Origin: a virus
Length of the DNA stretch: 64,000 bases
IMG/VR virus record: IMGVR_UViG_3300011429_000004
Span: 331 to 64,330 of that record
Strand: one strand, 5' to 3'
Shown: positions 39,009 through 57,722 of the stretch, in pieces
Layout of the letters: each line of letters begins with the position of its first letter
How positions within the stretch are numbered: position 1 is the first letter of the stretch
Notes under the pieces: generated by a model
The model's database searches: none
Told to the model about the DNA's origin: nothing
Seen by the model: only the letters and a program-made list of their open reading frames with translations
Position numbers and translations under genes: made by a program

Positions 39009-39226
39009 ATAAATTTCTTTTCTGTGTACATTTGTACTCTATCTATAGTATCTTCTACTAATTGCAATATTTCTGCTTTTCCTCTTTTTATACCTTTGTC
39101 TGTAAGTAAAAGATGACAAGCATCAGCTAACATAATTCCTACATTATAACTATTTTCATCGTCGTCGTTTTTATATCCTTTTAGCCTTTCAGGATCGGCT
39201 AATTGAATCATAACATCATCAGGCAT
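39005..39226 (-). CDS. Hypothetical small protein in the operon.
   Basis: 73 aa ORF bridging the HisF-like and amidotransferase genes with 4/8-bp overlaps. Confidence 0.25.
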   Translation of the reverse strand: MPDDVMIQLADPERLKGYKNDDDENSYNVGIMLADACHLLLTDKGIKRGKAEILQLVEDTIDRVQMYTEKKFI

Positions 39227-40352
39227 TTTTTAAGTCCCTCCTAAACATAGCCCTAGGAGGTCTTTTAATATCCCTTGTATCAAATAAATCTTTATTTGCC
39301 CAATGATTACATAATTCCACGAACTCTTCTATACTTACCCCTATTCTATCAAGAACATCTTCCAAGGGCACACCAAGGTAAGTGGAAGGGTATCGGCCAT
39401 CGTACAGTTCCACAATTTCTTTCGCCTCACGTCTTGTAATATTTTTTCTTCTGATGTGATTGGATGCAATATCGGTGCAGCGGCCAAAACCAAACTTGAG
39501 GTACTTAAAGTAATCATGAATACCAGTTTGAAGGTTATCAAGGTTCTCATAGTCATAACCTGTTCCTTCTACAGGGCCGTAGGCTGTTTTAAATCCATTA
39601 TTACATGCTATTTCGGCGTTTGTGGCGCCATCCCAAGGAAAGAACTGCCCTAAGAATACTCCCTTTACAGAGTCTTTCTTTAACTTGGGGTAAGTATAAA
39701 GTAACATATCTTGTTCGGTGGCTATCTTTTGATCTATGATATCTGATACTCTTAGACCGTTCAATCCACCAAATTCTTCTAACCATTTTTGATCCAGAGT
39801 AAATGTTTTTTGCGTCTCTTCATCAGGACCGCCATACTCATTTTGTGGGTTTTCTCCATATATTATAAGCGGAATATCATGCCAAGTAGCAACCCTAAAA
39901 GGAATAGAGAAAATAGTAACATGCTCCGCCCAAGATATATCCCCAATCTCTCTAAGCGTGTACGCATTGATTTTTTTTCTAACTCTTCCATTACATGTGA
40001 CATGGACATGATCTACTCCTAGCTGAGATATATTATCTAGGTTTTTATGGCCTAACTCGCTTACGTGGTCTGTCGTTGCAGTAACAGCAAGAGGGCGCAG
40101 CCCATACTGTAACGCCATTAAAACTTGGTAGTGTGAATCCTTTCCACCGGATACAGGTACAATACAATCGTATTGCTTCTTTTTGGCTTTCGCTTCTTCT
40201 ACTATTTTTGTAAATTCTTTCTGTCTCTTTGCCCAATCTATATCCTCTCGTGCCTCAAAGGCAGTGCAAGCACTGCATACTCCTTGATCGTTAAAAGTAA
40301 GATCAGGTTTTAAGTTATTATATAAGCATTTTTTGCAGTAGGTCAAGATCAT
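39219..40352 (-). CDS. N-acetyl sugar amidotransferase (PseA/WbuX family, PP-loop ATPase).
   Basis: PP-loop CIVPVSGGKDSHYQ. N-terminal Cys cluster CKKC...CSAC. 377 aa. Confidence 0.6.
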   Translation of the reverse strand: MILTYCKKCLYNNLKPDLTFNDQGVCSACTAFEAREDIDWAKRQKEFTKIVEEAKAKKKQYDCIVPVSGGKDSHYQVLMALQYGLRPLAVTATTDHVSELGHKNLDNISQLGVDHVHVTCNGRVRKKINAYTLREIGDISWAEHVTIFSIPFRVATWHDIPLIIYGENPQNEYGGPDEETQKTFTLDQKWLEEFGGLNGLRVSDIIDQKIATEQDMLLYTYPKLKKDSVKGVFLGQFFPWDGATNAEIACNNGFKTAYGPVEGTGYDYENLDNLQTGIHDYFKYLKFGFGRCTDIASNHIRRKNITRREAKEIVELYDGRYPSTYLGVPLEDVLDRIGVSIEEFVELCNHWANKDLFDTRDIKRPPRAMFRRDLKNA

Positions 40353-40813
40353 TTTATATACTCCTCTATGGCGTCTCTGTGTTTCTCATAATGCCCTAGA
40401 GTAGTATTGCATGTAATACATATTAGTCCTCGTACTTTATTTGTATTGTGACAGTGATCTACAAATAATTTAGTTTCTTTTCTACATATTTTACATTTAT
40501 TGTTTTGCTCGTTTGATATTCTATTAAAATCATCCAAAGTGATACCATATGTTCTTTTTAAATGCATGTTCTTAGCGCTGTTTATTACCAATACTGGATT
40601 AGCCTTTCGTCTTTTCTCATAATTTTTTCTGGACTCAATTATAAGTCTATCTCTATGCCTATCATAATATGATTTAGCTACTTTCTTTTTTATATGTGAT
40701 TTTTCTTTTCTATATCTAGCAGCATATTCTTTTCCATGTTTATCGTACCATACCTTATTTCTATTATAAGGTATTGATAGGTCCTCTTCAATCAAATCAA
40801 ATACGTTTTCCAT
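40349..40813 (-). CDS. Endonuclease VII-family nuclease, copy 2, embedded inside the sugar operon.
   Basis: CKICRKETKLFVDHCHNTNKVRGLICITCNTTLG Endonuclease_7 signature. Confidence 0.55.
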   Translation of the reverse strand: MENVFDLIEEDLSIPYNRNKVWYDKHGKEYAARYRKEKSHIKKKVAKSYYDRHRDRLIIESRKNYEKRRKANPVLVINSAKNMHLKRTYGITLDDFNRISNEQNNKCKICRKETKLFVDHCHNTNKVRGLICITCNTTLGHYEKHRDAIEEYIK

Positions 40814-41109
40814 CAGTGTTTTGTCTCTGGATTAGGTTGTTCTGGTTCTTGCGGTTGTGATGTTTCTTCTTTAGGTTTATTTTGTTCTTGAATTTGTTTA
40901 ACTACCCCTCCTAACATTTGTACCGTCTCAAAGAAGTCATTTATAGCCATAGTTATGGATACTCTGGGTATAGCGTTATCTAATTCTGGCACTTCTTCCA
41001 TAAAAGTAATACGTGCGTTTGGCCCCTTGCATATGCAGTGTACTTTATCTACGTGAATAGATTTTATTGCATATGCTGCTTCCATTAATTCTAATCCTTT
41101 TTTATTCAT
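40813..41109 (-). CDS. Hypothetical protein.
   Basis: 98 aa ORF, coupled on both sides by 1-4 bp overlaps. Confidence 0.3.
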   Translation of the reverse strand: MNKKGLELMEAAYAIKSIHVDKVHCICKGPNARITFMEEVPELDNAIPRVSITMAINDFFETVQMLGGVVKQIQEQNKPKEETSQPQEPEQPNPETKH

Positions 41110-42134
41110 TTTAGGTGCTCTTCTTTGAGTGCCGTTCCTGCTTTGATGTCCATACTTGCTTTTCTAGTCAAAATAGATTCATACATACTAGGAGGAAGCC
41201 CGTAGCTAGGACGAATAGAACGTATATTATGCGCAGTAAATTCTTCTCCTTCTGTAATATCTCTAACCACATAGAGTGATCTCCTAAATTGTCTGGAATA
41301 TCCTTCTTCAATTGAGGTTGTCTCAAAACTTGCCTCCGCTGCCCTTCTGCAAGCCTTCACGAAAAACTTGAAGGCGGTTGGAGTAAGTGAGAAAACTGCG
41401 TCCTCAGACGCAGAGTTGCCCGTGTACAAGTGTTTCTCTATCATACAAGCCCCCATGCCGCAAGCGATCTGTGCGGCTAGGAGGCCCTCTGTATGGTCGC
41501 TAAAGCCTATTAACTCATTTGTATTTTCATTTAACCATCTTATACGCCACAAATTAGACTCTTCTAATCTTGTAGGATAAGCGCTAACACAATGAAGAAA
41601 AATAATTTTTCTGTTTTCTATATGTGGTGCTATGTCCCATATTTCATTATCTGTAGACATGCCTGTAGATAATACTATTGGTTTATTTGTTTTAGCTACC
41701 TCTTGTATTAATGGTATATCTACTAATTCAAAACTAGCTATTTTATAAGCGGGGCAGCCTAGTTTTTCTAAGAACTCTATCCCTTGTTTACTAAACACAG
41801 ATGCAAATATAGGTATTTCAATGAAAGAAGCATACTCGAACATTCTCGCAGCTAGCTCATAGTTTGTTTGAGCTTTGGTATATAAGTCATATAGAGTATT
41901 ACCTTTCCAAAGACCATTTTTAATAGCAAAATCTGGGTTATTATAGGTATTATCTATATCTATAGTCATATCCTCTGGTGTATATACTTGTATCTTTACT
42001 GCATCTGCGCCTGCTTCTTTGGCAGCGTTAATTAAATCTTTAGCTTGTTGTAAGTTGCCCTCGTGGTTACAACTAAGCTCAGCCACTATAAATGGGTATT
42101 TATTCTTGCCTATTTCTTTGCCCAAGAAATTCAT
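41106..42134 (-). CDS. Nonulosonic acid synthase (NeuB/PseI/LegI family).
   Basis: IVAELSCNHEGNLQQAKDLINAAKEAGADAVKIQ matches the NeuB N-terminal consensus. 342 aa. Confidence 0.75.
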   Translation of the reverse strand: MNFLGKEIGKNKYPFIVAELSCNHEGNLQQAKDLINAAKEAGADAVKIQVYTPEDMTIDIDNTYNNPDFAIKNGLWKGNTLYDLYTKAQTNYELAARMFEYASFIEIPIFASVFSKQGIEFLEKLGCPAYKIASFELVDIPLIQEVAKTNKPIVLSTGMSTDNEIWDIAPHIENRKIIFLHCVSAYPTRLEESNLWRIRWLNENTNELIGFSDHTEGLLAAQIACGMGACMIEKHLYTGNSASEDAVFSLTPTAFKFFVKACRRAAEASFETTSIEEGYSRQFRRSLYVVRDITEGEEFTAHNIRSIRPSYGLPPSMYESILTRKASMDIKAGTALKEEHLK

Positions 42135-42544
42135 TCAAACCTCAGCATTTCTTTTAGCTGCTCTTTTGCGTTTCTTATCCAATCGTTCTTTTTTCTTTCT
42201 CTCATAGCGCGAGCTATCATTCTTAGTTTATGAGACTCAGATATAGATTTTAATCCAAGTATATTAGGATCAGTAGAAGGCTCTATATAAAAGCTATCTA
42301 GTTCTCTTTGTTGCCACGCATTAAAGTTACCCTCTATAACAGACTGTAATTGGTTTATTCTATTTGAATGCCATAAAGGGTCTACTTTTGGAGAATCTTT
42401 TGCATACCCCGCTACAGTATTTGCCATTGGAATATTTTTACCTAGCTCTTGTGAAGCATCCCTTACTTGCCCTTGTATAATACTAGGACCAGCTACTCCA
42501 GCACCTATCATTGTACCTATTGCATGTCTTCGAGATAGTTTCAT
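42131..42544 (-). CDS. Hypothetical protein in the operon.
   Basis: 137 aa ORF with 4-bp overlaps. Confidence 0.3.
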   Translation of the reverse strand: MKLSRRHAIGTMIGAGVAGPSIIQGQVRDASQELGKNIPMANTVAGYAKDSPKVDPLWHSNRINQLQSVIEGNFNAWQQRELDSFYIEPSTDPNILGLKSISESHKLRMIARAMRERKKNDWIRNAKEQLKEMLRFE

Positions 42545-43221
42545 TTAAAGATGTCCAATTTAGATAGGTCTGGATACTCATCGTTAGGTAAGTCTGGGTT
42601 ATTCTTAGGTAAGTGATGTAATCTCACTAAACCCTCGGCAGCTATCTCTGGAGACATATACATATGCCACCCCAACTCTTTAATATCGTCTTCTTTTGGT
42701 CTTACCCCTTCTGTGCGACCATCAAATCTAGCGCGCCTTGCCCATTTATCAAACTCTTTGTCATTATGTAGAATAGCACCACCCTGTTGAATACCTAGTA
42801 TTTTAGACCAATGAAAAGATACGCAAACATAGCCTTTTTTAGTTAAGTTACCTTTCGCCATACTGATGCACATGTCGCTGGTAAACCTTCTCGCAGCATC
42901 CCATATATTTAATGGTTTTAATTGATATAGCCCACTCCATTCTTCGTCTCTAAATGCTACTTTATATCTTGCATGCATTATTTGCATAGGCACAGATACA
43001 TAAGTATGTTTTGGTATCTCTATTGTATATGGATAATTAGCTCTTACACTATGGTACTCTAAACACAAGAACAGCGCATTAGTACAACTATTAACAACTA
43101 CACAGTACGGTGCCCCTGTATACTCTGCTACAGCATCCTCGAAGTCTTTGACTACAGAGAAAGGGTTTTTCATTTTAACCACCAGTATAAGAGACCTATA
43201 AGTATTCCAGTTATGCACCAA
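42541..43221 (-). CDS. DegT/DnrJ/EryC1-type PLP aminotransferase (PseC-like), unusually short.
   Basis: FEDAVAEYTGA..VVNSCTNAL, DAARRF and SFHWSKILG (PLP-lysine motif). Only 226 aa against ~370 typical. Confidence 0.45.
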   Translation of the reverse strand: MVHNWNTYRSLILVVKMKNPFSVVKDFEDAVAEYTGAPYCVVVNSCTNALFLCLEYHSVRANYPYTIEIPKHTYVSVPMQIMHARYKVAFRDEEWSGLYQLKPLNIWDAARRFTSDMCISMAKGNLTKKGYVCVSFHWSKILGIQQGGAILHNDKEFDKWARRARFDGRTEGVRPKEDDIKELGWHMYMSPEIAAEGLVRLHHLPKNNPDLPNDEYPDLSKLDIFK

Positions 43222-43261
43222 GCAATAATAGCTATGATATCTATTATTTGCTTAGGTATTT

Positions 43262-43540
43262 TCATTTTTTCTTCCTTCTTTTGCGTGGCTTATATTTAAG
43301 AGACTCTTCTAGCTCTTGCTCATATATTTTAAGCTGGCTAGGAAGCACGGACAAAGAAGTAATTAAACCAATCATTTTAGTTGTAATTATTTTGCCTTTA
43401 AAATAGTGCAAAGTGTCTTCTACTGCATCTATGACTATTCTTATTTTTGCTTGGTGTACTCTAGTCTCTTCGCGATCTGCCCTTTTCATGGTATCCTCCA
43501 GCCAGATGATTCTGTTCCCTTGTATATAGTACGCTGTCAT
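43262..43540 (-). CDS. Hypothetical small basic protein.
   Basis: 92 aa ORF. Confidence 0.25.
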   Translation of the reverse strand: MTAYYIQGNRIIWLEDTMKRADREETRVHQAKIRIVIDAVEDTLHYFKGKIITTKMIGLITSLSVLPSQLKIYEQELEESLKYKPRKRRKKK

Positions 43541-44544
43541 AGTACTCCTAGTTTAATTAGTTCTTCTTTGAGCCCTTGCTCACTTAGCATCTTAGTGAAA
43601 GACCCATTAGAAGTAAATGATTTCCCTTGTAGTTCTTGCATATACTCAGCGCCATTGTGTTCATACTGAGGTGGATTAATTATATATGTTTTAGTTGTGG
43701 GGTCATAATCTGTATTTTGTAGCTCCTCTTGTGTTATTATTTCTTCGTGGAGCTTTTCACCTGGACGAATACCTATTACTTCGCACCATTGTTTCTCTGG
43801 TGGATAGTTACCCATCATAACCATGGCGAGGTCTTTAACCCTGAAACTTGGCATGTCAGGAACAAACGTCTCCCCGCCATACATGCGCTCTATGCACTGT
43901 AACACAAAGTTAACGGCCTCGTCTAGGGTTATCCAAAAGCGAGTCATAGAATCGTCAGTTATGGTTAATTGTTTTAGTTCTTTTATTTGTTGCATAAACA
44001 ATGGTATGACACTACCATTGCTATTGGCCACATTACCATAACGAACAACACTAAACTTAGGACCATGGGGTCCTCTAATATTATTTGCAGCATTGAATAT
44101 CTTCTCCGCACATAGTTTAGTTGCGCCGTAGAGATTAATAGGATGCACAGCTTTGTCGGTAGAGAGTGCTATTACTTTCTTCAGTGATAAAATACCGCCA
44201 TAGGATGTAGCTGGAGTAACGCAACAGTCTACTAGGTTCTGCGCACCAAGTACATTAGTTTTAATATACTCAAATGGATTATACTCTGCTGAAGGAACTA
44301 TTTTTAAAGCAGCTGCGTGGACTATTATTTCATAGTCTCTTATAGCTAGTGCCAGTCTTTCTTTGTCTCTTACATCACCAATGAAGAATCTTAGCCTTTC
44401 ATCTTTAAATCTATTCTTCATTTGCTCTTGTTTATGTTCACATCTTGAGTAGATTCCTATCTTCTGATATTTATTGCCACTAAGCAATTTTTCAGTCAAT
44501 GCTTGTCCAAACGAACCTGTGCCACCTGTAATTAAAATATTCAT
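43537..44544 (-). CDS. UDP-GlcNAc 4,6-dehydratase (PseB/FlaA1/CapD family). First gene of the sugar operon.
   Basis: MNILITGGTGSFGQALTEKLL Rossmann motif, YGATKLCAEK catalytic YxxxK. 335 aa. Confidence 0.7.
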   Translation of the reverse strand: MNILITGGTGSFGQALTEKLLSGNKYQKIGIYSRCEHKQEQMKNRFKDERLRFFIGDVRDKERLALAIRDYEIIVHAAALKIVPSAEYNPFEYIKTNVLGAQNLVDCCVTPATSYGGILSLKKVIALSTDKAVHPINLYGATKLCAEKIFNAANNIRGPHGPKFSVVRYGNVANSNGSVIPLFMQQIKELKQLTITDDSMTRFWITLDEAVNFVLQCIERMYGGETFVPDMPSFRVKDLAMVMMGNYPPEKQWCEVIGIRPGEKLHEEIITQEELQNTDYDPTTKTYIINPPQYEHNGAEYMQELQGKSFTSNGSFTKMLSEQGLKEELIKLGVL

Positions 44545-44823
44545 CTAACAGCCCCACCATATATTATATATCTTATACATACTTCACATTCACAAGTAAA
44601 GAAGTGTGTTGGCTCTTTTTTCTTAGGTGAAGTAAAAAACCACTTCATTTAGTTTTACCTGTCTCTACGAATTTAAATAATTTAGCGGCCGTGTCTAATA
44701 TAGTTTGTGAGTTTATAGGTGCTGGTCTATCCATACCGCCCAGAGAGTAATTGCCCTTTGTATCATGTATTTCCAAAGCTAGTTTTAAGCATCTTCCTCT
44801 ATGCTCTACTTTTTCTGCGGTTG

Positions 44824-45081
44824 TCATTGTGCTAGTATCCCTGTTGGACCAAATTTCTCTAGGTCTTTCTTCTTTTGCTCTTTCTCTACTACTTGTATTA
44901 TTTCACTCATTATCTTAGAATAACTCAAAGCTTTTTCTTTCTTGTCTTGGTCCATTATGCCTAATTGTAGATCACACTGTATTCTTACAGCGCAGCCAAC
45001 ATTAGTTGTGGCGTCTGTCATTAGCGCTTCAAAGAAAGATTTAAAGATTGATTGTATACGTAGTTGCTCTTGGTTTAGCAT
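44824..45081 (-). CDS. Hypothetical small protein.
   Basis: 85 aa ORF. Confidence 0.25.
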   Translation of the reverse strand: MLNQEQLRIQSIFKSFFEALMTDATTNVGCAVRIQCDLQLGIMDQDKKEKALSYSKIMSEIIQVVEKEQKKKDLEKFGPTGILAQ

Positions 45082-45350
45082 TAAATTAATCCATCTATGT
45101 CTTTTGACTCGGGCTTATCGTCAGGGGGGAACCAGTTGGTGCGGAGCACTTGCCCATCGGTCAGGCGCTCTATGCGACAGGCAAGCTCGTAAATGGGCCT
45201 AGAGCGGCCTAGGGCGATCATTCGGATGTGGGATGGGTGGCAGGGCACCTGCCGGGCAAAGGCGCTGTAGGTCGTCTCTGAGGCTTCCAGCCACGCTTGC
45301 AGGGTGAGGCTCATAGGCGCCTTTTTAGGCGATTTTTTATCGTGAGTCAA
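45081..45350 (-). CDS. Cro/YdaS-like helix-turn-helix regulator candidate (GC-rich gene).
   Basis: TQAWLEASETTYSAFARQVPCHPSHIRMIALGRSRP resembles YdaS/Cro-type HTH. About 60% GC, unlike its neighbours. Confidence 0.35.
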   Translation of the reverse strand: MTHDKKSPKKAPMSLTLQAWLEASETTYSAFARQVPCHPSHIRMIALGRSRPIYELACRIERLTDGQVLRTNWFPPDDKPESKDIDGLI

Positions 45351-45418
45351 TAGGGTATATGCAACTTTTGGATCAGAATAAAATAGGCAGTTTTAGTCTT
45401 GCCTAGGACTTAGTTGCA

Positions 45419-46342
45419 TTACTTTTTTATGCCGGTTTGGTCTACTCCCATGAATGGCACTACATTAGATAACATAGTTGCCGGGAGCTTACCATCCCAT
45501 CTCTCTGCTTTACGCAAGTCTACTAGGTTAGAGTTTTGTGCAAGCGCTTTAGCTTGAGCCTCAATAGCAGCTGCATTTGCTTTACCGTTTAGTTCTATGC
45601 CCTTGGCTTCTGCTTCGCGGTTTAGTAGATAGGCATCGGCTTCACCCTTGGCTTTAACTACTACAGCCTCGGCACGTTTGCGTTCTTGCTCTAGTTCTTG
45701 AGTACGTGTTTCTACGTTAGCCTTTGCTGCGGCTGCGTCTGATACTGCTTTTTTGAATGTAGTGGCGTACTCAAGGTCAGTCAAAAAGAAAGCAGTTACT
45801 TCTAGCCCAAGAGAGCTTGCACCTTCTTTAATGACTGCATAGATAGTATCTCTTACTTTTGCTCTTTGTTCTGCTACGTGTTGGGTGTTAATCTTACCCA
45901 TTTCAGCCTTTAACCTGTCTTCGGCTAGAGCCTGTAAGCGTTCCTTGTAGTCTTGTACGTTCACCCAAATAAACCTGAGACCTTCTTGAGTTTTGGGCAC
46001 ACGATAGAACAAGTCGTATATAATATCTATCTCTTGATTGTCAATAGTATAAGTATTCACTGCTTTCTTGGGACGAATATTTTGTACGTCTGTCCTGATG
46101 AAGTGCACTGAGTTTACAATAGGCATCTTGAAATGTAAACCAGTACCTTCAATAGAAGATATCGCGCCAAAGCGCGTAACAACTGCGTTCTCGTACTCTT
46201 CTACTGTGTAGTAAGTAGAAAAAAACAACACTAGCAATAAACAGCCTACGATAGCTGCTGATATAGTCTTAAACGGCATTGAAGTTTCTCCTTGTGTTGG
46301 TTCGTCGTCTTGTGGATGTGCGTAAGCCCTTTGTCTTGTCAT
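45419..46342 (-). CDS. SPFH / band-7 (prohibitin/HflC-like) membrane protein.
   Basis: N-terminal TM helix, SPFH core (YTVEEYENAVVTRFG...), Ala/Glu-rich coiled-coil tail. Confidence 0.65.
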   Translation of the reverse strand: MTRQRAYAHPQDDEPTQGETSMPFKTISAAIVGCLLLVLFFSTYYTVEEYENAVVTRFGAISSIEGTGLHFKMPIVNSVHFIRTDVQNIRPKKAVNTYTIDNQEIDIIYDLFYRVPKTQEGLRFIWVNVQDYKERLQALAEDRLKAEMGKINTQHVAEQRAKVRDTIYAVIKEGASSLGLEVTAFFLTDLEYATTFKKAVSDAAAAKANVETRTQELEQERKRAEAVVVKAKGEADAYLLNREAEAKGIELNGKANAAAIEAQAKALAQNSNLVDLRKAERWDGKLPATMLSNVVPFMGVDQTGIKK

Positions 46343-46514
46343 TGTTTATCTACTCCATTTCCTTTGTCCAGAAATGCTTGTGTTTCTAGATTAGCTACCC
46401 TTTGTTCTAGAGACTTAAGTTTGTCGCTACGTTGCTCATACGCTCTATATACAAGCACGCCAAGAAACCCCAGGCATAGAACGCCCAGGATCACACCTAG
46501 TCCTAGCATATGAT

Positions 46515-46785
46515 TGCCCTTTCTTAGTTAAAGATAGTAGACGTTGCTCGAGTAGGTGTGCACCCATACCCGGTTTTCCCCCTAGTGACGGGGCGGCTGA
46601 TTTGTATTATATACTCCTTACGAGAGTACATAAAAGCGTTAGGGGTCTCTAGCCCGCGCCCTTTATCAGCCCTATAATCAACGTCAGGAGCACGAGTGCT
46701 CTCTATTAATAGCAAAAGACCCCAGATTACTCTAGGGCCTTTCACTCCAAACAAGTTTACTCGGGGTAAGTATCCGAGGAATGTT
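46515..46785. other. GC-rich structured intergenic element with CTAG-containing hairpins.
   Basis: ccccctagtgacgggg hairpin. 7-bp long-range stem ggggtct...agacccc enclosing ~65 nt. Palindrome gagcacgagtgctc. Confidence 0.3.
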
Positions 46786-47438
46786 TAGAACAGCGCGTCA
46801 GCGTCCGAAGTGTCCACATTCTTAGCCTGGAGCAACTTCAGATGCTTGGCGTAGTAAGGGTTCTTGTTGAGCTTGGCGAGTGCAGCAGTGCGCTCCTTAC
46901 CGGGGAGAGCAACCAGTGCAGTGCGCTTGTCGTTCAGCTGCTTATCGGTAGGTGCAGCAGCAGCAACAAGCTCACCAGCCTTGGCGTGACCAGCCGGGAA
47001 CTTCACCTTTTTAGTGAACATCTCGGTCTGAGCAAGCTTAAGTGCCTCGATATAGATAGTCGGATCGAACACCTTACCCTTGCGCTCACCAGTGCCTTCC
47101 GCGCGGGCATACATCTTGGCTTCGGCAAAGTCTGCCATCAGCTGCGATGCAAGATCGAGTGCCGGACCATCTTCGATGTTATGAGTAACGAACATCTTGA
47201 CGCGGCTGGCCATGCCATACGCGGCGAACCGCGCAAGCATAGAAGGATTGATCTTGTTCACGGGGAAGTCTTTGTAGGCGCCCTTAGTGTCGGTGACACG
47301 AATTGCACTCACAGTCTCAGGAACACGGCGCGCATCGCCCTTGCCCTTGTCATCGACAAAGGTCACGGAAACCGGACCCTTACCACGCTTAGAAGTCTCA
47401 GCCATAATGTTCTCCTTTGGTTCTCCGTTAATGTTCAT
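46785..47438 (-). CDS. Hypothetical protein, GC-rich (~57% GC), likely horizontally acquired.
   Basis: 217 aa ORF. The plausible start is MAETSKRGKG at 47407. The antisense + ORF at 46842-47459 is rejected as low-complexity. Confidence 0.35.
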   Translation of the reverse strand: MNINGEPKENIMAETSKRGKGPVSVTFVDDKGKGDARRVPETVSAIRVTDTKGAYKDFPVNKINPSMLARFAAYGMASRVKMFVTHNIEDGPALDLASQLMADFAEAKMYARAEGTGERKGKVFDPTIYIEALKLAQTEMFTKKVKFPAGHAKAGELVAAAAPTDKQLNDKRTALVALPGKERTAALAKLNKNPYYAKHLKLLQAKNVDTSDADALF

Positions 47439-47490
47439 TCGCTCTCGCTCATGAACTAATGAAACACCTTACTCTCTATCTCTATGGGTG

Positions 47491-47865
47491 TCAACTAGGG
47501 TTTTGTGCTGGATGCAAATATTTTTTGATGTCGGGGTTGCCCATCACTAGGTCCAAGAATTTATCCATGTCACAGGCTAAGCGACCATCTGTGCGCTCAA
47601 ACTTAGGCAAATAGTGCATATAAAAATAATATACTAAAAGAACTCTAATTAATTCTTGCTTTGATACTTGTACTCTTGCAGTGCCCACTGGTTTAGTAAG
47701 CAAATAGTGCTCACTAACATGTTCATATATGTACAACTGATGTTTAAGCCAATACTCACAGTTATAGAGCTTAGGATGTTTATCTGAAATTAACCACTGA
47801 TAGAACTGTTCCTCTACAGTTGTATTTACATCTGCGCCTATTAGGTCGAATACGTCATCTGACAT
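47491..47865 (-). CDS. Hypothetical protein.
   Basis: 124 aa ORF, AT-rich. Confidence 0.3.
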   Translation of the reverse strand: MSDDVFDLIGADVNTTVEEQFYQWLISDKHPKLYNCEYWLKHQLYIYEHVSEHYLLTKPVGTARVQVSKQELIRVLLVYYFYMHYLPKFERTDGRLACDMDKFLDLVMGNPDIKKYLHPAQNPS

Positions 47866-47907
47866 TGTTTTTACTCCTTCCGTGCCTGTAGGCCCGACCA
47901 GTCGTAG

Positions 47908-48237
47908 TTAGCTTAACTTCCCTTTGTTGAAGGCGGCTACTACAGGGTTCACTTTTTCAGTAAATTCATTTTTAGTAGATGCTTTTTTAACATATACATC
48001 TATTGTCTCTAGACCTTGCTTCTCTATCAGCCTCATAAAACCACTAAGAAGTGTTTTTGCTTCTTCTGGAGATACCTTATCAAGCATAGTTGTAAAGCTA
48101 TATATCATTACTTCTCCGAGTGCAGTGATAGCTATTCCTTTTTCAGTCTTAGCGAGTGAGAACAAAGCATTAATAGCTCTTACAAGAGTGTCTATTTGGT
48201 AGTTTTGCTCTGGTGTCGGTCTATCTGAAATAGTCAT
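47908..48237 (-). CDS. Hypothetical protein.
   Basis: 109 aa ORF. Confidence 0.3.
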   Translation of the reverse strand: MTISDRPTPEQNYQIDTLVRAINALFSLAKTEKGIAITALGEVMIYSFTTMLDKVSPEEAKTLLSGFMRLIEKQGLETIDVYVKKASTKNEFTEKVNPVVAAFNKGKLS

Positions 48238-48658
48238 AGTGTTACTCCTATCTTATTAGTGCCACTAAGCACTCGCTCACTGGCATGTGTGGACCCTTGG
48301 TAAGCTTATATACAACAGCTAAGCCTACCACACTAGAGAATAGCGCACCAATAGTAAAAGAAGTAACAATACTTTTCATTTACTTACCTCTGATCCTGTA
48401 GGATCAACCTGGTTGTTAATACCCATATATAGTTGCATCTGATATTTTATCTCGTGCCACAGCTAGGCGCAGTGCGTCCTTGGCCTCAACATACGTCTTA
48501 AACCTTGTTGCTTGCTTAAAGGCAGTGACCCATTCCCAATGGGAGCCATCTTCCCAGATGTTAAGATATCGCTTACCTTTGAGAACGCCGAGAGTTACTA
48601 TATACATCTTGTTTCCTTTCATTCGCTCTGCGCTGTTGCGCAACCGCTTATGGAGTGA

Positions 48659-48949
48659 CTAGTACTTCATCGCCTTGTTATCTACAACTATTAACAGACG
48701 CATACCACTGACTTCAATGTTGGTGAACGCTTGATCTAATAGTTTTTCACCGTCACGCTTACTGGCCTCAAGAACTACCATAGGTATACCGTCCACTTGG
48801 TGCATGAGACGCCATAGATTAAGCTCCGGCAGCCACCCAAAACATAGCACATCAGACTTTGAATAAGTTTTAATATTTGCGCTTTGAAGCGCAAACATTT
48901 TAATTTGGTTAACTGTGTCTTGTGTGGGCATGTTATATGCAACTCTCAA
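48659..48949 (-). CDS. Hypothetical protein.
   Basis: 96 aa ORF. Confidence 0.25.
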   Translation of the reverse strand: MRVAYNMPTQDTVNQIKMFALQSANIKTYSKSDVLCFGWLPELNLWRLMHQVDGIPMVVLEASKRDGEKLLDQAFTNIEVSGMRLLIVVDNKAMKY

Positions 48950-49074
48950 TTAGTATTAATTTTATTGAGTCATGGTTTCTGCCAAATATTTCATTAGAAA
49001 AATCGCCTAAGTACAACATAAAAAATTTTGTAGTTGTACTATCAAAATAAGTAATTGTTACGTTGTATCCCATA

Positions 49075-49911
49075 TTATGCCTCCACCTGCACGTTGCCAT
49101 GTTTCTTTAACATAGTTTTAACCCATGCGATTGGGTCTCGCAGCATTAGTTCATCGCCACCATGACCGCCTTCAATTAAGATATCGTTAACATCACAACC
49201 ACAAATGTCCCGACGATTGCGACAGAAGGGAATAGACGACATTCGCCTATAGTCTGCTTGAGCGTGCACCGTGGTAAACATCAGGCGCCGACAGTACGCG
49301 GGGTTAGTGAGCATGTACACGGCTCGCCCTAGGTCTAAGGGGTGACTGTCAAGCTTCACTATGGCGCCGTACACGCGCGAATTATAGGCCGGATCACCAA
49401 AACTGCAAGCGTAAAGCTCGACAGGGCGCTGCATCCCCAAGGCCATAACTAAGGCCAAGCACGCTACGCCACGATTAATTAACTCCGCGTGCGATAGCGA
49501 AGCGGAGACAGTTGTCTCTATGAACACCTTAAGAGGCGTAGTCTCTACTTGATTTTCTGAGTGTGATCGCACCAACATATCCTCGGGATGCCCCATAAGA
49601 ACAGCTGGAACGTTAGGCACATACCCTTGAATAGATGAAACAATGATAGGTTGCCCTTGAGTAAATACGTGGGCGTCACGCATCTTGTCTATGATTTTTT
49701 CGGCTTGCTCCAAGCCTTTAGTGTCACCATTAATAAGCCTAGACACTGCGGAATTAAAATCCCCACCACTAAATGAGTTGTCTTGCCAGCCTTCACAAGC
49801 GCTAACCATATCCCTAGGAATAGTCTCAAGCCATTGAGCATATGCAGCTGGGTTTTCAAACCTCATTGCATAGTCGTCTTCTATTGGTGACTGTCTTGGG
49901 ATACTAGGCAT
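49075..49911 (-). CDS. Hypothetical protein, a probable partner of the downstream AAA_5 ATPase.
   Basis: 278 aa, moderately GC-rich. Immediately downstream of the ATPase gene on the same strand. Confidence 0.35.
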   Translation of the reverse strand: MPSIPRQSPIEDDYAMRFENPAAYAQWLETIPRDMVSACEGWQDNSFSGGDFNSAVSRLINGDTKGLEQAEKIIDKMRDAHVFTQGQPIIVSSIQGYVPNVPAVLMGHPEDMLVRSHSENQVETTPLKVFIETTVSASLSHAELINRGVACLALVMALGMQRPVELYACSFGDPAYNSRVYGAIVKLDSHPLDLGRAVYMLTNPAYCRRLMFTTVHAQADYRRMSSIPFCRNRRDICGCDVNDILIEGGHGGDELMLRDPIAWVKTMLKKHGNVQVEA

Positions 49912-49954
49912 TTTATGTTCTCCGCTCTAAGCCTGTAGGCTCAACCGCGCATGG

Positions 49955-51718
49955 TTACTTTATCATATTCCATTGCGCATCGCTAAGACCCTGCTTTAGT
50001 GTGGCGTGCTCAACTAGTTCTTGAGATACACCAGCCGCTAAAAGCGCTTCACCATAGATCGACGCCCTAGGAGTGATAGTATAGCCTTGAATAGATGAAT
50101 TTCCGGTTTCTAGCTTACGGCGAACCTGCCTAACTCTAGCAAGCCAAGTCTTGTTGGCACACAGCGCATCCTCTAGAGCCTCGTCTAATGGCCAATGCAG
50201 GAACACAAAACGATTGGTCAAGGCAAAATCTTGCTTGAACCGACCAACGTATTGCACGGTGCCACCCATGCCACAAGTGTTAGCACCGGCTACAATGATG
50301 CACTGATGATGCCTGGGGACCATCTTATCGGGGAATGAGGCTAGGCCGTTAGCTAATGCACCATTTAGCGCAAGCAAAGCATCAGGCATAGAGCCGTCAA
50401 TCTCATCGAACATATAGACGCCACCATGCTCCCATGCTTCCCTAAATGCAGTAGACATAAATTGCCCATTGGCGTTTATGAAGCCTTGCAGCTGGAACGC
50501 TGTTGCGATAGCGCCATTGTAACGGTATTTGTGTTGGCCGGGAAAGAACACCTCGGCAAGCTTCTCTGCGGCTGTAGTCTTGCCCGTACCGGCTGGACCG
50601 TGCAACCATATGTTGCAATGTGCACCTGATCTAAGCTTGGCGCTGGCGAATTGAACCAATGCAGGAAAGCAACGATGCTGCACGCCCATGTTGAGCGGCG
50701 GCAGGTCTACGCGCTTTAGTTCGATGATTGTTGGCGCTTTTAACTGTATTTTAGCTGTTTCCTCATCGATATATTTGCGTAGCGCGCTTCCAACGTTTTC
50801 TACAACTTTAATTAGTTGTTCACCGTTGACATAGTTCTTAGATTGCAACAAAGCATGAGTAACAAACTGTGAAATGTCAAGTTGCATCTTAATGTCGGGC
50901 TGGCCATTAGGCTTAGGTGTCTCAGTTGTACCATTGTTATATTCTACTTTAGTGTCGTCGGGGAGTTCCGGCAGCATATCATCAAATATCTTGGACTCGT
51001 CTTGCCCCAATACTTTATCCTTGTTGCGCGCGCCTTGCGGACGGCCAACTTTATAGCGCGACCGCGCCATATTGTGTGCTTGGTTTAGATCGTTCTCAAG
51101 GAAATACTTTTGCAGATAGGCTGCGAGCGCACCAGCGTTATACTTAAAACGCTCATCAATGTCGAAACGGGAATAGTAAGGCGTGTTTTGGACCTCCCAC
51201 AGACATTGCAGCATCATGCGAAGATGCTTGTAGTTTTGCCCGTATTGCTTGCGAACGTATTCCGAGCCGGTCATTTTATCCCCCGTTGTATCGTCTCGCT
51301 CCGCGCCTGGACGCGACCGCTCGACTGGTGTTGTGCTCTTATTATAGGGCGGGGAGTATTTATAATCAACTAAAGATTGTTTAGTTGTGTTATTTAGTTG
51401 CTCAATCTTAGGTTGCAAAGGTAAAGGTAAAAAGTATAGTTGATTTTTTATGAATTTATCTAAAGCCGCATTAAATTTTTTGAGTTCATTTTCTGTTGTT
51501 AGTTGTGTATAAATCTCTTGGGCTAAGATAGGATTCTTATTTTGTGTTATTATATCATCTTTAATTAATGGTTGCTCGCTCGGTGGCGCAGGACCATTGT
51601 ATATAGTATCTCTTTGGTTTGTTGATTGTGGTGGCGACGCAAATCGTGTGCGATACTCGCAGCAAAACGCGCAATCGCAGTCTGATCTGTAATCAGATGG
51701 GCCGTCATAGGTTGACAT
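49955..51718 (-). CDS. AAA+ ATPase of the AAA_5 (MoxR/CbbQ/McrB-like) type with a long N-terminal extension bearing a Cys cluster.
   Basis: Walker A HGPAGTGKTT, Walker B VYMFDEIDG, then ALLALNGAL. N-terminal CDCAFCCEY. Codon composition shifts within the gene. Confidence 0.55.
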   Translation of the reverse strand: MSTYDGPSDYRSDCDCAFCCEYRTRFASPPQSTNQRDTIYNGPAPPSEQPLIKDDIITQNKNPILAQEIYTQLTTENELKKFNAALDKFIKNQLYFLPLPLQPKIEQLNNTTKQSLVDYKYSPPYNKSTTPVERSRPGAERDDTTGDKMTGSEYVRKQYGQNYKHLRMMLQCLWEVQNTPYYSRFDIDERFKYNAGALAAYLQKYFLENDLNQAHNMARSRYKVGRPQGARNKDKVLGQDESKIFDDMLPELPDDTKVEYNNGTTETPKPNGQPDIKMQLDISQFVTHALLQSKNYVNGEQLIKVVENVGSALRKYIDEETAKIQLKAPTIIELKRVDLPPLNMGVQHRCFPALVQFASAKLRSGAHCNIWLHGPAGTGKTTAAEKLAEVFFPGQHKYRYNGAIATAFQLQGFINANGQFMSTAFREAWEHGGVYMFDEIDGSMPDALLALNGALANGLASFPDKMVPRHHQCIIVAGANTCGMGGTVQYVGRFKQDFALTNRFVFLHWPLDEALEDALCANKTWLARVRQVRRKLETGNSSIQGYTITPRASIYGEALLAAGVSQELVEHATLKQGLSDAQWNMIK

Positions 51719-51784
51719 AGATTGGTGCCCTTTTCTATGTTAGCCTTGTATATAACACAAATACGAGCGGTTGTCAAAACAGAG

Positions 51785-51875
51785 AGACCACGCCTAGGCG
51801 CTTGAGATACAACCCGTGGGGGACTGATTGTATCGCCGCGACCGATCTAGGCGTGGTCAGTTCGTAGGATAGCAG
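51785..51875. repeat. 12-bp inverted repeat (gaccacgcctag / ctaggcgtggtc) flanking ~60 nt, upstream of the ATPase gene.
   Basis: Seen directly in the sequence. CTAG-containing like the other structured elements. Confidence 0.5.
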
Positions 51876-51882
51876 AGATGGG

Positions 51883-52143
51883 TTAAGAAACTGCTACTCC
51901 TTTTGCATCAATGTAGCCTCTAAGCTTTGGCGCACGCTTGCGCGGCTTCTTTGCTGTGCGGTCATTCATGCAAGCGCGATAAAATCGATCAGACTGATAG
52001 CGTGGATTAGTGCCGCGCAAAGCGTTAGATATAGCCTGCGCAATCTCAAACTTGTAATATTGCTCGCCTTCCTTGAATTGGTCAAAGATCGCATCTGCAA
52101 GCTTGTTGTAGTCTTTACGTGTCATGGCCATGTTATTTCCCAT
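51883..52143 (-). CDS. Hypothetical small basic protein.
   Basis: 86 aa ORF. Confidence 0.3.
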   Translation of the reverse strand: MGNNMAMTRKDYNKLADAIFDQFKEGEQYYKFEIAQAISNALRGTNPRYQSDRFYRACMNDRTAKKPRKRAPKLRGYIDAKGVAVS

Positions 52144-52435
52144 CTCCGTTTGCTAACTTCTCACAACGATAGGCTGAAAAGCTTATGATGCCGTAAATTG
52201 CTAGTTGAACAACACCAGCAACAACAATGGCGACGTTGGCGCCACAAACAAGATTAGCTAGGAACGCGGCGATTGTAGTGCAGAGCATAGAGTCCATGAT
52301 CGCGTTTTGTGCAGTGGCCATAACGACTAGTTTAGCTAGTTCTGGCTCTTGGCGCTCTATCGCTTTGATGACACTTGCGGCTGTAAGTCTAGACATCTGA
52401 TTTCCCTTTAGTCTTGGCGTAACCCTGCATTGCAA
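52133..52435 (-). CDS. Small membrane protein.
   Basis: Hydrophobic stretch LCTTIAAFLANLVCGANVAIVVAGVVQLAIYGIISF. Confidence 0.3.
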   Translation of the reverse strand: MQCRVTPRLKGNQMSRLTAASVIKAIERQEPELAKLVVMATAQNAIMDSMLCTTIAAFLANLVCGANVAIVVAGVVQLAIYGIISFSAYRCEKLANGDGK

Positions 52436-52867
52436 GATAGCTGTGAATAGTTGATACTTTGATATGGTGAGGTGTTCCGCCCATCAAGAAATACATTTCA
52501 AGACAGGCTTTGATTGTTGCACTGTCTATGTTGTATTTACGGGATAATAGAATGGAGATTGTTGTCATTGTTGCCCCTTTTCATTCGCTCCGCGCTGGTG
52601 CGCGACCGCTCATGAATTTACTTTGTCCATTCGGCTCTAGCCTTTGCTTCGAGCGATGCAAGATCACGCAGGAAATTGCGCTGCATGATTGTCGGCACGA
52701 ATTGGCCAGCCGTGTCGGCCTTGACAAGGTCGCGTTGCGCCTCGATCATTTGAAGGATCAGATAGTTGTCGCGCTTGTCATAGTTCTTAATGCGGTTTTT
52801 GCGGTTCCAGGACATTGTAGTTCCCCTTTTAAGCTCTTAATCGCTTCGCGATACGTGCCTAGCTGCG

Positions 52868-53209
52868 CTAGGCTGTTTCAGTGAATAGTGTCTCACACTC
52901 ATCTTGAGAAATGGTAAATTCGGTTTTGTGTTTTTCAAACCAAGATTGCAGCTCAATCGCGCTGCCAAACAAGGATACATCAGCTGCCCAGCGGTCCACA
53001 CATTGGCGGCAGTCGATCTTGCCTGCTACGATTTGGTCGACTAATAGTTTGACAAAATCAGGACCATATGCGTTAATCATACCATGTAGATCATACTCTA
53101 CTGCGAATAGGCGCACAAGATAGCCTTGGGCTTTGGATATTTTGGAGGGGTTTTTACGACGGGATGCCATGGGAGTTCTCCTTGGTTGTATAGAAGAAGA
53201 TACACCCAA
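52868..53209 (-). CDS. Hypothetical protein.
   Basis: 113 aa ORF. Confidence 0.3.
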   Translation of the reverse strand: MGVSSSIQPRRTPMASRRKNPSKISKAQGYLVRLFAVEYDLHGMINAYGPDFVKLLVDQIVAGKIDCRQCVDRWAADVSLFGSAIELQSWFEKHKTEFTISQDECETLFTETA

Positions 53210-53220
53210 TTAGTTAAATA

Positions 53221-53463
53221 TCACTTAACGCGCCAACACATTTTGTGTTTAACAGATATTTCAAAGCGCTTGAAATTATGCTCTGGGTTTTCCCATTCTT
53301 TGTGCCTAAATACGTTGCGCATTTTTTGACAGCGATGTACGTCAGTAATGTCTGTAAGTTCAAAACTAGAGCCAATTGGCATTGTATAGAACTCCTGCCA
53401 ATCAGATAAGTCTAGCCTAGGCTTTTTTGGTGGGATAGGTATATTTGTTAGAAGCTTTCTCAT
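53221..53463 (-). CDS. Hypothetical protein. First gene of the leftward operon leaving the regulatory hub.
   Basis: 80 aa ORF. Confidence 0.25.
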   Translation of the reverse strand: MRKLLTNIPIPPKKPRLDLSDWQEFYTMPIGSSFELTDITDVHRCQKMRNVFRHKEWENPEHNFKRFEISVKHKMCWRVK

Positions 53464-53499: not shown

Positions 53500-54500
53500 A
53501 CGTCATGCCGGATATGCCAGATAGAACGGTCTAATCTCTCTTTGTATGGGGAAGAAAGATGTATATAGTATTAACATTCTTATACATTGATATAGTAGTC
53601 TATCTGGCATATCCGACAGGATACCTCGAAACGCCATATATAGAGCCATCTACAGCAATTGTCAATTGAACAGCTATCGAACGGCTATCGGTCGGATAAG
53701 CGGCAGGACGTGTACAGAGTTTCCCGTGGAGCGTGTAATTGTATATATACAACCACAAGGCGAGTTACCTGTAGGATAGCCCGATTTTCATGGTACATAT
53801 CTGGCGGATAGATAATGAATGGAAACAGCGTTCAATTGCAAATCCATGTATTAATACTCTCTTAATGCATATACAACCTATAGCAACTCATTACTTATTG
53901 CTTTTCCATTAATACTCATGTCAAGTAAAATAATTGTGATCTCGCAACTGCTAACAATTCGCATAATATCTGTTATGTAAAATATCAGCGATAACGAAGA
54001 TGTGATAGTGATGTTCTGGGTATGTTCTATTAATACAGGTATATACAACTCTTATGTTCCCGCTTTGTTGTAATATATTATTAACTCAACTAGGTTATAC
54101 TGATTTCAGGATCGAGAAACGGAGAAATACAATGCTCGCGCATCTTTACGGCAAACCCGGCAAGTGGTATCTTGACGTAACAGATATGGAGGGGCGCACA
54201 ATCATATTGATTGATGTGAAGAACAAGAGAGAAGCGCGCAAGATTTGTAAGGTATATAATTACAAAGAATGGAATTTCTAAGAGCAGCAAACTGGTGAGC
54301 AATCACCAGTATTGCACCATTTAGTTGTATATACAACTTGGTGGACTGCAGCTATGCGGAGCACGCATAGGTTAAGATTGTATTACGATGTAGATGCAAC
54401 TCGGGCAACATATATATTTATTTTCGTGTGGAAATTAACGTTTTAGAAAAGAAGGTATGGTACTATACCCCCCCTGGACCCCCCCAGCCAGAAACACGGT
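53500..54500. promoter_or_regulatory. About 1 kb AT-rich regulatory hub. It has four copies of a TATATACAAC motif, a 16-17-bp inverted repeat pair (ccggatatgccagatag / ctatctggcatatccg) and two C7 homopolymer tracts.
   Basis: Motif copies at ~53741, 53870, 54038, 54320. Inverted repeat at 53508-53524 and 53600-53616. C7 tracts at 54466-54487. Divergent transcription units on either side. Confidence 0.45.
54132..54281 (+). CDS. Small hypothetical protein inside the regulatory hub.
   Basis: Internal ATG (MLAHLYGKPGKWY) of the tracked ORF 54054-54281. Confidence 0.2.
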   Translation: MLAHLYGKPGKWYLDVTDMEGRTIILIDVKNKREARKICKVYNYKEWNF

Positions 54501-57464: not shown

Positions 57465-57722
57465 GTGCGCACCGAATCGGAAAGAGATAAAATGATAGAG
57501 TCAATCGTAATGGCAATGATTAGCTTGTGCCTTCTGGTACTGGCTATCTATATCGTTCTTTGGGTGCTTTCACAATTAGGTATAGTTATTCCTGAAAACG
57601 TAATGAAGATTGTTTGGGTCATAGTGGTTTTAGTTGCTATTCTTATTTTAGTGAGAACCGTGCTTCCTGGGATGGGGGTTAGGATTGGTCTACTAGAAGG
57701 AGCGGTTAAACTGTTGACCTAA
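57465..57722 (+). CDS. Small membrane protein (two TM helices).
   Basis: MAMISLCLLVLAIYIVLWVL and IVWVIVVLVAILILV. Confidence 0.3.
   Translation: MRTESERDKMIESIVMAMISLCLLVLAIYIVLWVLSQLGIVIPENVMKIVWVIVVLVAILILVRTVLPGMGVRIGLLEGAVKLLT

Follow-up and report, generated by a model that had tools for sequence, protein, structure and literature searches.

Is the middle of the leftward gene block of an uncultured tailed phage a piece of DNA acquired for defence, or is it part of the phage's own backbone, and what might be done by the ATPase and the partner protein encoded there? The block lies in a 64,000-nucleotide stretch (the window; positions 331 to 64,330 of IMG/VR record IMGVR_UViG_3300011429_000004), which is almost the entire metagenome-assembled genome of ~64 kb (source contigs 64,186–64,330 bp). 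From ~55.2 kb down to 35.5 kb all genes are on the minus strand, diverging from the plus-strand structural genes, and the region under study (44645–53463) is the middle of this run. A preliminary description of the DNA saw in it an accessory island of mixed guanine-plus-cytosine (GC) content, imported from a higher-GC source and serving host takeover, defence or anti-defence. We find instead that the region is a conserved, syntenic backbone of the leftward block, in which the variable parts are a cassette of a small transmembrane (TM) protein with an SPFH protein, and low-GC mini-genes. The pair at its centre is a conserved AAA+/DUF7192 module, for which, with slightly better than even confidence, we favour the role of a DNA-associated chaperone or remodeller over that of a cobalt chelatase.

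The conserved genes and the elements within them on which the argument turns are as follows (aa, amino acids; GC3, GC at third codon positions).

49955–51718, minus strand: 587-aa MoxR-class (AAA_5) AAA+ ATPase with a 335-aa N-terminal extension; GC 0.461, GC3 0.46, GC3 z 2.6.
49964–50713, minus strand: AAA+ core of the ATPase, aa 336–585, with Walker A GPAGTGKT at 50576–50599 and Walker B DEID at aa 438.
51017–51055, minus strand: putative AT-hook YKVGRPQGARNKD of the ATPase, aa 222–234, ~148 aa before Walker A.
51659–51679, minus strand: cysteine cluster CDCAFCC of the ATPase, aa 14–20.
49075–49911, minus strand: 278-aa DUF7192 partner, probably a short CobT-C-like adaptor of the von Willebrand factor A (vWA) type; GC 0.485, GC3 0.48, GC3 z 3.0.
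49504–49518, minus strand: ETTVS of the partner, aa 132–136, at the end of strand β1, an ExTxS variant of the DxSxS of MIDAS, the metal ion-dependent adhesion site.
49543–49659, minus strand: conserved partner loop, aa 85–123 (...GYVPNVPAVLMGHPEDM...), with a low predicted local distance difference test score (pLDDT).
47491–47865, minus strand: p124, 124 aa, with homologues at the same syntenic position in L004, L008, L010 and L011.
46785–47438, minus strand: p217, 217 aa, with its likely start at M12 (47405), giving 206 aa; GC 0.540, GC3 0.62, GC3 z 5.4.
45081–45350, minus strand: p89, an 89-aa Cro-like helix-turn-helix (HTH) protein with homologues in five relatives, just upstream of a sugar cluster; GC 0.559, GC3 0.66, GC3 z 6.1.

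Every open reading frame (ORF) of the region was compared with eight related loci (L004–L011), which came from seven look-ups with the ATPase and belong to phages of ~62–67 kb; five of them (L004, L005, L008, L010 and L011) reach far enough for the full gene order to be read. The ATPase/DUF7192 pair is present in all eight, an observation with which the notion of an accessory island falls. The conserved order runs from the ATPase through DUF7192, p124, p217 and the Cro-like p89 to a PseB-like sugar gene, with p217 and p89 syntenic in all five far-reaching relatives and p124 in four of the five. All ORFs named in the preliminary description exist where they are placed here, on the minus strand, and the ATPase and its partner, which point the same way, are a genuine functional pair.

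The compositional mosaic is likewise real by calculation, although a GC content of 50–60% for 49075–51718 proved too high an estimate (300-nucleotide windows peak at 0.53). Mean GC is 0.408 for the window and 0.408 ± 0.029 for 32 large ORFs, none of which exceeds 0.473, and the elevation in the listed genes is mainly one of third positions (background GC3 0.307 ± 0.057). What did not stand is the step from GC-rich to foreign, since the GC-rich genes are the conserved ones. Homologues of p217 in all five relatives are raised in GC and GC3 against their own genomes (0.465–0.558 versus 0.38–0.45). Identity to the window protein across relatives is 24–34% for p217 and 38–58% for p89; at 24–34% identity silent sites should be saturated, so that the bias of p217 must be one that is actively kept up and cannot be the legacy of a donor. 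Clearly accessory genes, on the other hand, are of ordinary or low GC (SPFH gene 0.427, near the genome mean; orphan ORFs 0.30–0.45), and the GC-rich genes are therefore the backbone. Thus, raised GC, mainly at GC3, is a maintained property of conserved genes and carries no trace of recent import.

The ATPase core is assigned by its sequence to the MoxR/AAA_5 class, closest to midasin and CobS. The AAA_5 call of the preliminary description is confirmed: Pfam AAA_5 matches with 28.6 bits against a cutoff of 22 bits over aa 370–464 only, and phrog_249 matches over aa 336–585 (E 1.6e-34). Motifs were checked by translation, and a 25-sequence alignment gave the invariant residues, which include Walker A, Walker B, R503, R533, R551 and N480 of GANT at aa 478, the last assigned as sensor 1. 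Against the Protein Data Bank (PDB) the single sequence found nothing; the profile of the 25-sequence family found midasin (8.6e-16) and CobS 9ujv (2.4e-14), with CbbQ and NorQ at ~2.5e-5, where several unrelated P-loop ATPases also score. A relationship of the McrB type had also been suggested, but neither Pfam nor PADLOC gave a McrB or McrC match, the nearest solved structures are midasin and CobS, and the partner is vWA-like. An NCBIfam search with both members of the pair returned no CobS or CobT model at E ≤ 0.01.

The 335-aa N-terminal extension is lineage-specific. Its best-conserved element, YKVGRPQGARNKD, reads as a textbook AT-hook and putative minor-groove binder of AT-rich DNA. Among 120 homologues, GRP occurs upstream of Walker A in 48, mostly ~130–150 aa before it, and the strict form GRPxGxxN[KR] in 35; several read RGRPKGSKNK/R, which we take to be the AT-hook-2 core of HMGA1. 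Translation also confirmed the cysteine cluster noted earlier in the N-terminus. Its CxCxxC, possibly a small zinc knuckle, is common only to the two nearest of the 120 homologues, P0003 and P0004. Cysteine-rich N-termini unrelated to it were observed in Tunturi_4 gp88 (L003 3510–4787; CCKC...HVAC) and Silverleaf gp123 (L013 1906–3120; CECG...HVCPG), where they resemble zinc ribbons; it seems that separate lineages have each equipped a common AAA+ core with small N-terminal modules of their own. Also within the extension, a 150-nucleotide segment of 25% GC with GC-normal flanks (51419–51568) encodes aa 51–100; P0003 is the one homologue to align with this part of the protein, at the very N-terminus, and the segment may have been inserted recently or be a linker that evolves fast.

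The partner, which the preliminary description held to be unrecognisable by motif, is a clear member of Pfam DUF7192 (PF23822; 64.1 bits against a 27-bit cutoff) and of phrog_1909 (E 1.7e-27). An AlphaFold2 (AF2) model from a 10-sequence alignment (pLDDT 72.9, predicted template modelling score 0.73) places a strand at aa 16–18, helices at 21–79 and the loop at 85–123 before a β-α-β core, and resembles vWA/MIDAS domains with modest scores. Foldseek hits in the PDB were non-significant (best E 0.014), with the same targets ranked first. Among viral structures in BFVD, the top 12 are DUF7192 proteins from phages of Mycobacterium, Gordonia and Lactobacillus and from uncultured phages, and the tier that follows consists of viral CobT/vWA proteins (E 0.01–0.3). 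No PDB sequence matches the DUF7192 profile even at E ≤ 10, so that the vWA call comes from the fold alone. At the ETTVS position four residues are invariant and T133 is kept in at least 90% of the 10-sequence family alignment; a Kayvirus homologue has NSSIS. The loop has invariant G96, P99, G107, P109 and M112, its pLDDT falls below 50 at aa 85–98 and 114–123, and its motif GYxPNVPxxLxGxPxxM is kept in the Kayvirus homologue. No M48C-like N-domain is present in the partner. With moderate confidence, we therefore regard the partner as an adaptor of the vWA type that resembles CobT-C and whose MIDAS is degenerate.

This architecture gains meaning from CobS-CobT, in which the C-terminal half of CobT consists of β0, α0', α0, a 'shaft' that enters the pore of CobS, and then the vWA domain (bioRxiv 10.64898/2026.07.21.739949). 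The window pair shares the ATPase core and, in the partner, the order of β0, helices, loop and vWA-like core of CobT-C, and once DUF7192 itself is set aside the closest structures are those of viral CobT proteins. By this analogy the partner loop, which stands where CobT-C has its shaft, is a candidate shaft for the ATPase pore, and an adaptor loop in the ring pore would be the likely mode of action. There are also differences: CobS has 328 aa whereas the window ATPase has 587 with an AT-hook-bearing extension, and CobT has 637 aa whereas the partner has 278, with ETTVS in place of D-x-S-x-S and no conserved β4 Asp. The MoxR/vWA pairs NorQ-NorD, CbbQ-CbbO and RavA-ViaA (PMC9976466) likewise comprise two genes, an AAA_5 ATPase and a partner, which there is of the vWA type, and combine an ATP-driven remodeller with a MIDAS adaptor that brings it to its client. 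However, NorQ and CbbQ are much less similar to the window ATPase than are CobS or midasin, and these systems mature metalloenzymes encoded alongside, whereas the neighbours of the window pair are phage regulatory and uncharacterised genes and its ATPase bears a putative DNA-binding motif. Midasin (Rea1), the best PDB match of the ATPase profile, unites an AAA ring and a MIDAS domain in one polypeptide, but it is a eukaryotic protein of ~5000 aa in which six AAA modules are fused and whose task is the removal of ribosome-assembly factors, whereas the window pair consists of separate small phage proteins.

The pair is not an undescribed system, as had been thought possible: it is catalogued as PHROG 249 and PHROG 1909/Pfam DUF7192 and usually annotated 'porphyrin biosynthesis/CobS'. 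The ATPase is contained in 422 phage records. Its homologues number over 120, many of them on contigs of 57–68 kb. It is followed by a gene of ~280–295 aa in Sinorhizobium phiM5, Tunturiibacter Tunturi_4, Staphylococcus Kayvirus S24 and mycobacteriophage Silverleaf; homology of these partners to DUF7192 was established by tblastn (phiM5, Tunturi_4) and by hhalign, with probabilities of 96.5% (S24) and 97.6% (Silverleaf). The pair is thus an ancient two-gene module in phages of Proteobacteria, Firmicutes, Actinobacteria and Acidobacteria, and its spread over the phages of four phyla fits a core phage function better than mobile defence cargo. In the papers that were searched there was no experiment on the pair and no mention of DUF7192. 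What is new here is the combination of an AT-hook-bearing ATPase with a short vWA-like adaptor of degenerate MIDAS, a probable variant of the MoxR-class AAA+/vWA pair.

How might such a pair work? If it resembles CobS-CobT, NorQ-NorD and midasin in this respect, the ATPase would form a hexameric ring that grips the DUF7192 loop (GYxPNVP...GHPxxM). The vWA face of DUF7192 would hold a client protein, and ATP hydrolysis would remodel or release it. The AT-hook, together with the CxCxxC knuckle in the closest relatives, may tether the machine to AT-rich DNA, and the client could be a nucleoprotein complex of the phage or of its host. We favour a DNA-associated client because of the AT-hook and the position of the pair in a non-structural block beside a Cro-like regulator.

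Several observations weigh against this picture of a DNA-associated remodeller in the conserved backbone. The AT-hook is absent from the ATPases of the distant family members phiM5, Kayvirus, Tunturi_4 and Silverleaf, and tethering to DNA may therefore have been added in this lineage and need not be the core function of the family. The partner departs from the canonical MIDAS (D-x-S-x-S with a later T/N and D), having ExTxS and no conserved Asp in the β4 'ILIxGG'. An 'early/middle' timing of expression would be read from gene order only. Expression-linked codon bias was rejected as the cause of the raised GC3: a codon adaptation index referenced to the capsid gave z 1.6 for p217 and −5.6 for p89, and such bias accounts at best for part of the elevation (the highest GC3 among the large ORFs, 0.42, is that of the major head protein).

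Among the rival explanations, a virion-assembly chaperone, in which the pair would serve capsid or tail components as MoxR-vWA chaperone and co-chaperone, fares best and is still unlikely. Virus-encoded AAA+ and vWA pairs are known from jumbo phages, where Iyer et al. (2021) proposed such a role by analogy with Acidianus two-tailed virus (ATV) and cited its tail development as precedent (PMC7824862); MoxR-vWA systems are generally maturation chaperones, and the ATV vWA protein ORF892 is among the weak BFVD matches of the partner (E 0.65). Yet in the window, as in the related contigs compared, the pair is found in a non-structural minus-strand block, among small orphans and next to the Cro-like gene, with head and tail genes tens of kb away, and in phiM5 and Silverleaf it is near the genome end. 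The AT-hook and the cysteine-rich N-termini point to nucleic acid and not to capsid proteins, and DUF7192 has no counterpart of the N-terminal metallopeptidase domain that the jumbo-phage vWA partner carries.

Viral cobS/cobT clusters are widespread, and a proposal made without experiments has them take over host CobN for vitamin B12 synthesis (Liu et al. 2021, PMC8651126; PMC11705849). Applied to the window, the viral CobS/CobT would dock on host CobN, increase cobalt insertion and provide adenosylcobalamin for the phage ribonucleotide reductase. This enzyme (19968–22016) is indeed a class II, adenosylcobalamin-dependent NrdJ (TIGR02504, 468.8 bits against a cutoff of 399.95), the ATPase profile does match solved CobS (E 2.4e-14), the Joint Genome Institute calls many homologues 'cobaltochelatase CobS' and PHROG 249 is labelled 'porphyrin biosynthesis'. 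Midasin scores equal to CobS, however, and no NCBIfam CobS model matches. The 278-aa partner has neither the M48C-like N-domain, which is the part of CobT in contact with CobS, nor a canonical D-x-S-x-S...N...D MIDAS, a chelatase has no need of a 335-aa extension with an AT-hook, and no ORF within the window is of CobN size. Moreover, the same pair occurs in Staphylococcus Kayviruses, whose hosts, to our knowledge, have no CobN-type aerobic cobalamin pathway. We consider a role in B12 metabolism improbable.

A more specific role on DNA is suggested by the regulatory elements around the pair, which are listed here together with those of the relatives.

51786–51858, minus strand: 73-nucleotide hairpin upstream of the ATPase, with 12-bp perfect arms and a U-rich tail (z −2.7).
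51749–51777, minus strand: promoter-like TTGACA-N17-TATATA after the 73-nucleotide hairpin, its −10 region overlapping a copy of TTGTATATACAA.
51746–51757: copy of TTGTATATACAA at the promoter-like site of the ATPase.
46701–46747, minus strand: GC-rich, terminator-like hairpin directly following p217, tailed by TTTTGCTATTAATAG and containing a CTAG site.
53739–54336: array of TTGTATATACAA in an ORF-poor stretch, with copies at 53739, 53866 and 54038 and an exact copy at 54326.
L004 6137–6751, L005 5085–5357, L006 6111–6546, L010 6761–7434 and L011 4866–5645: arrays of TTGTATATACAA in relatives.

A scan of the region for sigma-70 promoters performed at chance (30 versus 28.4 ± 5.5), and the site upstream of the ATPase alone is reported because it coincides with a conserved dyad. 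L004, L005, L010 and L011 also have a hairpin and tail in this place after p217, but the stem sequences differ, and four pairs change on both sides. With a promoter-like site before the ATPase and a terminator-like hairpin after p217, the genes from ATPase to p217 (51749–51777 to 46701–46747) appear, judging from these signals, to form a single transcription unit.

TTGTATATACAA is a 12-bp perfect dyad with 81 matches in the window against 36.7 ± 7.2 expected (at most two mismatches), the best of them grouped at 53739–54336. In relatives, arrays of 5–7 copies occupy the equivalent gene-free gaps of 1.1–1.8 kb, and a copy ~130–230 nucleotides upstream of the ATPase is also found in L005, L006, L008 and L011. 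As the 12-mer is kept although the proteins share 30–50% identity, it is a candidate for a functional origin, iteron or operator. That it is simply the −10 element of promoters was rejected, as the intergenic copies, the ATPase-proximal one excepted, share no −35. Speculatively, a p89 dimer would be the obvious candidate to bind the dyad, and the TATATA core of the dyad would also suit the AT-hook. A bolder reading is that the pair acts, not as a chelatase, but as a DNA-tethered remodeller at the TTGTATATACAA dyads with their AT-rich cores, a new kind of AAA+-driven switch at a phage origin or operator. It would load, evict or reset a protein there, which might be the Cro-like regulator, a replication factor or a nucleoid protein of the host. 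We think this long shot improbable too; were it true, many DUF7192-paired 'CobS/porphyrin biosynthesis' genes of phages would be mis-annotated.

The weakest explanation, a horizontally acquired higher-GC island for defence, anti-defence or superinfection exclusion, can draw on the truly heterogeneous composition, on an SPFH cassette that is accessory at this site and plausibly acts at the membrane, for example in superinfection exclusion, on anti-defence genes of the Acb2/Tad1-hairpin type in the same leftward/early block of relatives and on the use of AAA+ ATPases by some defence systems, but we judge it very improbable, as the GC-rich genes are conserved, syntenic and GC-elevated in every relative, only genes of ordinary or low GC are clearly accessory, the pair is common to phages whose hosts span four bacterial phyla, the partner looks like a vWA adaptor and not like a nuclease or other effector, and a PADLOC-DB 2.0 search with ten region proteins gave no meaningful family match, its sole hit being a noise-level one to IetA (E 0.005, 14.3 bits, P-loop). 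A host-takeover-type role for the gene block is conceivable.

Structured CTAG elements had been noted as a further feature of the region. Two intergenic hairpins happen to contain CTAG, but a CTAG repeat family was rejected, as no direct-repeat family includes the tetramer; its frequency of 5.3/kb in the region against 3.9/kb outside (1.36-fold, Poisson P 0.027) reflects sites mostly within coding sequence.

The remaining conserved genes are less easily placed. For p124, neither Pfam nor PHROG gave a match. A lineage-restricted family is indicated for p217 by its distribution: it forms 106 representative clusters among 1.84e9 proteins, nearly all of 200–230 aa, and found no Pfam, PHROG or PDB match, also with alignments and profiles of 10 and 51 sequences; its AF2 model (pLDDT 60.6) is too poor for a structure search. 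The C-terminus of p217 is acidic and ends in Phe, and the replication module has no recognisable single-stranded DNA-binding (SSB) protein; an SSB of the T7 gp2.5 type was rejected at an hhalign probability of 0.4%. A 205-aa antisense ORF over p217 (46842–47459, plus strand) was likewise rejected as a real gene, being open in four of six relatives and broken in two; it lies in exact reverse-complement phase and is a by-product of the avoidance of TTA, CTA and TCA codons in a gene of high GC3.

The description of p89 as Cro/YdaS-like held for its Cro part once a profile was used: the single sequence has no Pfam match at E ≤ 1, and the six-member family profile matches Cro 8co2 (E 2e-6) and also 8c7k (E 4.5e-5), with ~68 residues aligned, including the HTH. 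An invariant P-C pair and a GC3 of unusual height set p89 apart from these Cro-type regulators. The annotated parts of the window, in which not all ORFs were scanned, showed neither an integrase nor a CI-type repressor, so that p89 is probably a temporal regulator and not a lysogeny switch.

The variable genes of the region are these.

45419–46509, minus strand: accessory cassette of a 56-aa TM protein (46339–46509) and a 307-aa SPFH/Band-7 membrane protein (45419–46342).
44645–45081, minus strand: two low-GC orphan ORFs of 60 and 85 aa, with no homologue in any relative.
47908–49100, minus strand: five small ORFs (109, 43, 75, 96 and 55 aa) between DUF7192 and p124.
51883–53463, minus strand: small ORFs (86, 100, 59, 65, 113 and 80 aa) upstream of the ATPase unit, patchily conserved.

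The SPFH cassette sits just past the terminator-like hairpin of p217, and the overlap of the stop of the 56-aa gene with the SPFH start indicates that the two are translationally coupled. The SPFH call was upheld (Pfam Band_7 E 3.7e-24, 86.2 bits against a cutoff of 23.6; N-terminal TM-like segment at aa 24–42), and the protein also matches phrog_200. It stays below the NCBIfam equivalog cutoffs of HflK (55.1 against 159.4 bits) and HflC (41.9 against 134.4). Its coupling to the 56-aa TM protein distinguishes it from phage SPFH/prohibitin-family proteins in general. With phage SPFH/prohibitin-family proteins (phrog_200) it shares a Band_7 domain, an N-terminal TM segment and sporadic occurrence at ~30% identity: the gene is absent from this site in L004, L005, L008, L010 and L011, L006 carries a 25%-identical Band_7 gene at another place, and homologues of ~30% identity are scattered non-syntenically over 40 phage records. 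That the SPFH gene is accessory is one part of the island description that stands; the cassette is a typical accessory 'moron', with superinfection exclusion a possible role. The small membrane proteins mentioned in the preliminary description are borne out by TM-like segments at 46339–46509, 48248–48379 and 52133–52435. None of the ORFs at 47908–49100 is conserved in relatives save for a marginal match of 48248–48379 to L008 (E 0.001), and 51883–52143 matches phrog_19432.

Elsewhere in the window, the following genes anchor the genome as that of a tailed phage.

57722–59344: terminase.
60585–63149: portal.
793–1824: major head protein.

DNA polymerase I, a primase, a helicase, the class II NrdJ and three tRNAs are also encoded. 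Cultured relatives are distant (Brucella Tb-like and rhizobial podophages, with ~28–33% portal identity), and the nucleotide sequence of the region, compared with 50,697 phage records, had zero matches; there is therefore no close cultured relative among them. Rfam found no RNA family in the region, the three tRNAs all lying elsewhere in the window. In L005 (~13850–13930), the gap downstream of the p217 terminator holds a sequence that looks tRNA-like by eye (GCGTAGCTCAATTGGTAGAGC...GGTTCGATCCC).

Directly downstream of the region, a complete cluster for the biosynthesis of a nonulosonic acid of the pseudaminic/legionaminic type (36753–44544, minus strand) encodes a PseB-like dehydratase, DegT aminotransferase, NeuB synthase, WbuX-like amidotransferase, HisF-like protein, CMP-sugar cytidylyltransferase and Pse-associated methylase. 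This cargo, unusual for a phage of ~64 kb, is kept in L004, L005, L008, L010 and L011. An endonuclease VII gene is inserted in it (40349–40813) and a second lies at 28802–29257, while an HNH endonuclease ORF (25238–25762) begins, as called, within tRNA-Leu (25183–25267), so that its true start is probably further downstream; together, the HNH ORF and the two endonuclease VII genes, in the replication and sugar modules, suggest several insertions of the homing-endonuclease type. Genes with the Acb2/Tad1-hairpin domain of the anti-CBASS/anti-Thoeris sponge family were seen in L004 (2393–2701) and L010 (5526–5831), among small genes towards the terminase side; no such domain was found among those window ORFs that were scanned.

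In conclusion, a GC-rich patch in a phage genome can flag a conserved core instead of foreign DNA, and the dyad arrays together with the orphan p217 family offer testable handles on regulation in an uncultured phage lineage. The ATPase family is routinely labelled 'CobS / porphyrin biosynthesis' and counted among the B12 auxiliary metabolic genes in virome surveys, but its DUF7192-paired form, which is conserved also in therapeutic Staphylococcus Kayviruses, fails three features: the curated CobS model, the M48C domain and the canonical MIDAS. Should the pair turn out to remodel nucleoproteins, a function widespread among phages would change its assignment, and much that has been inferred about metabolism from viromes would have to be corrected.

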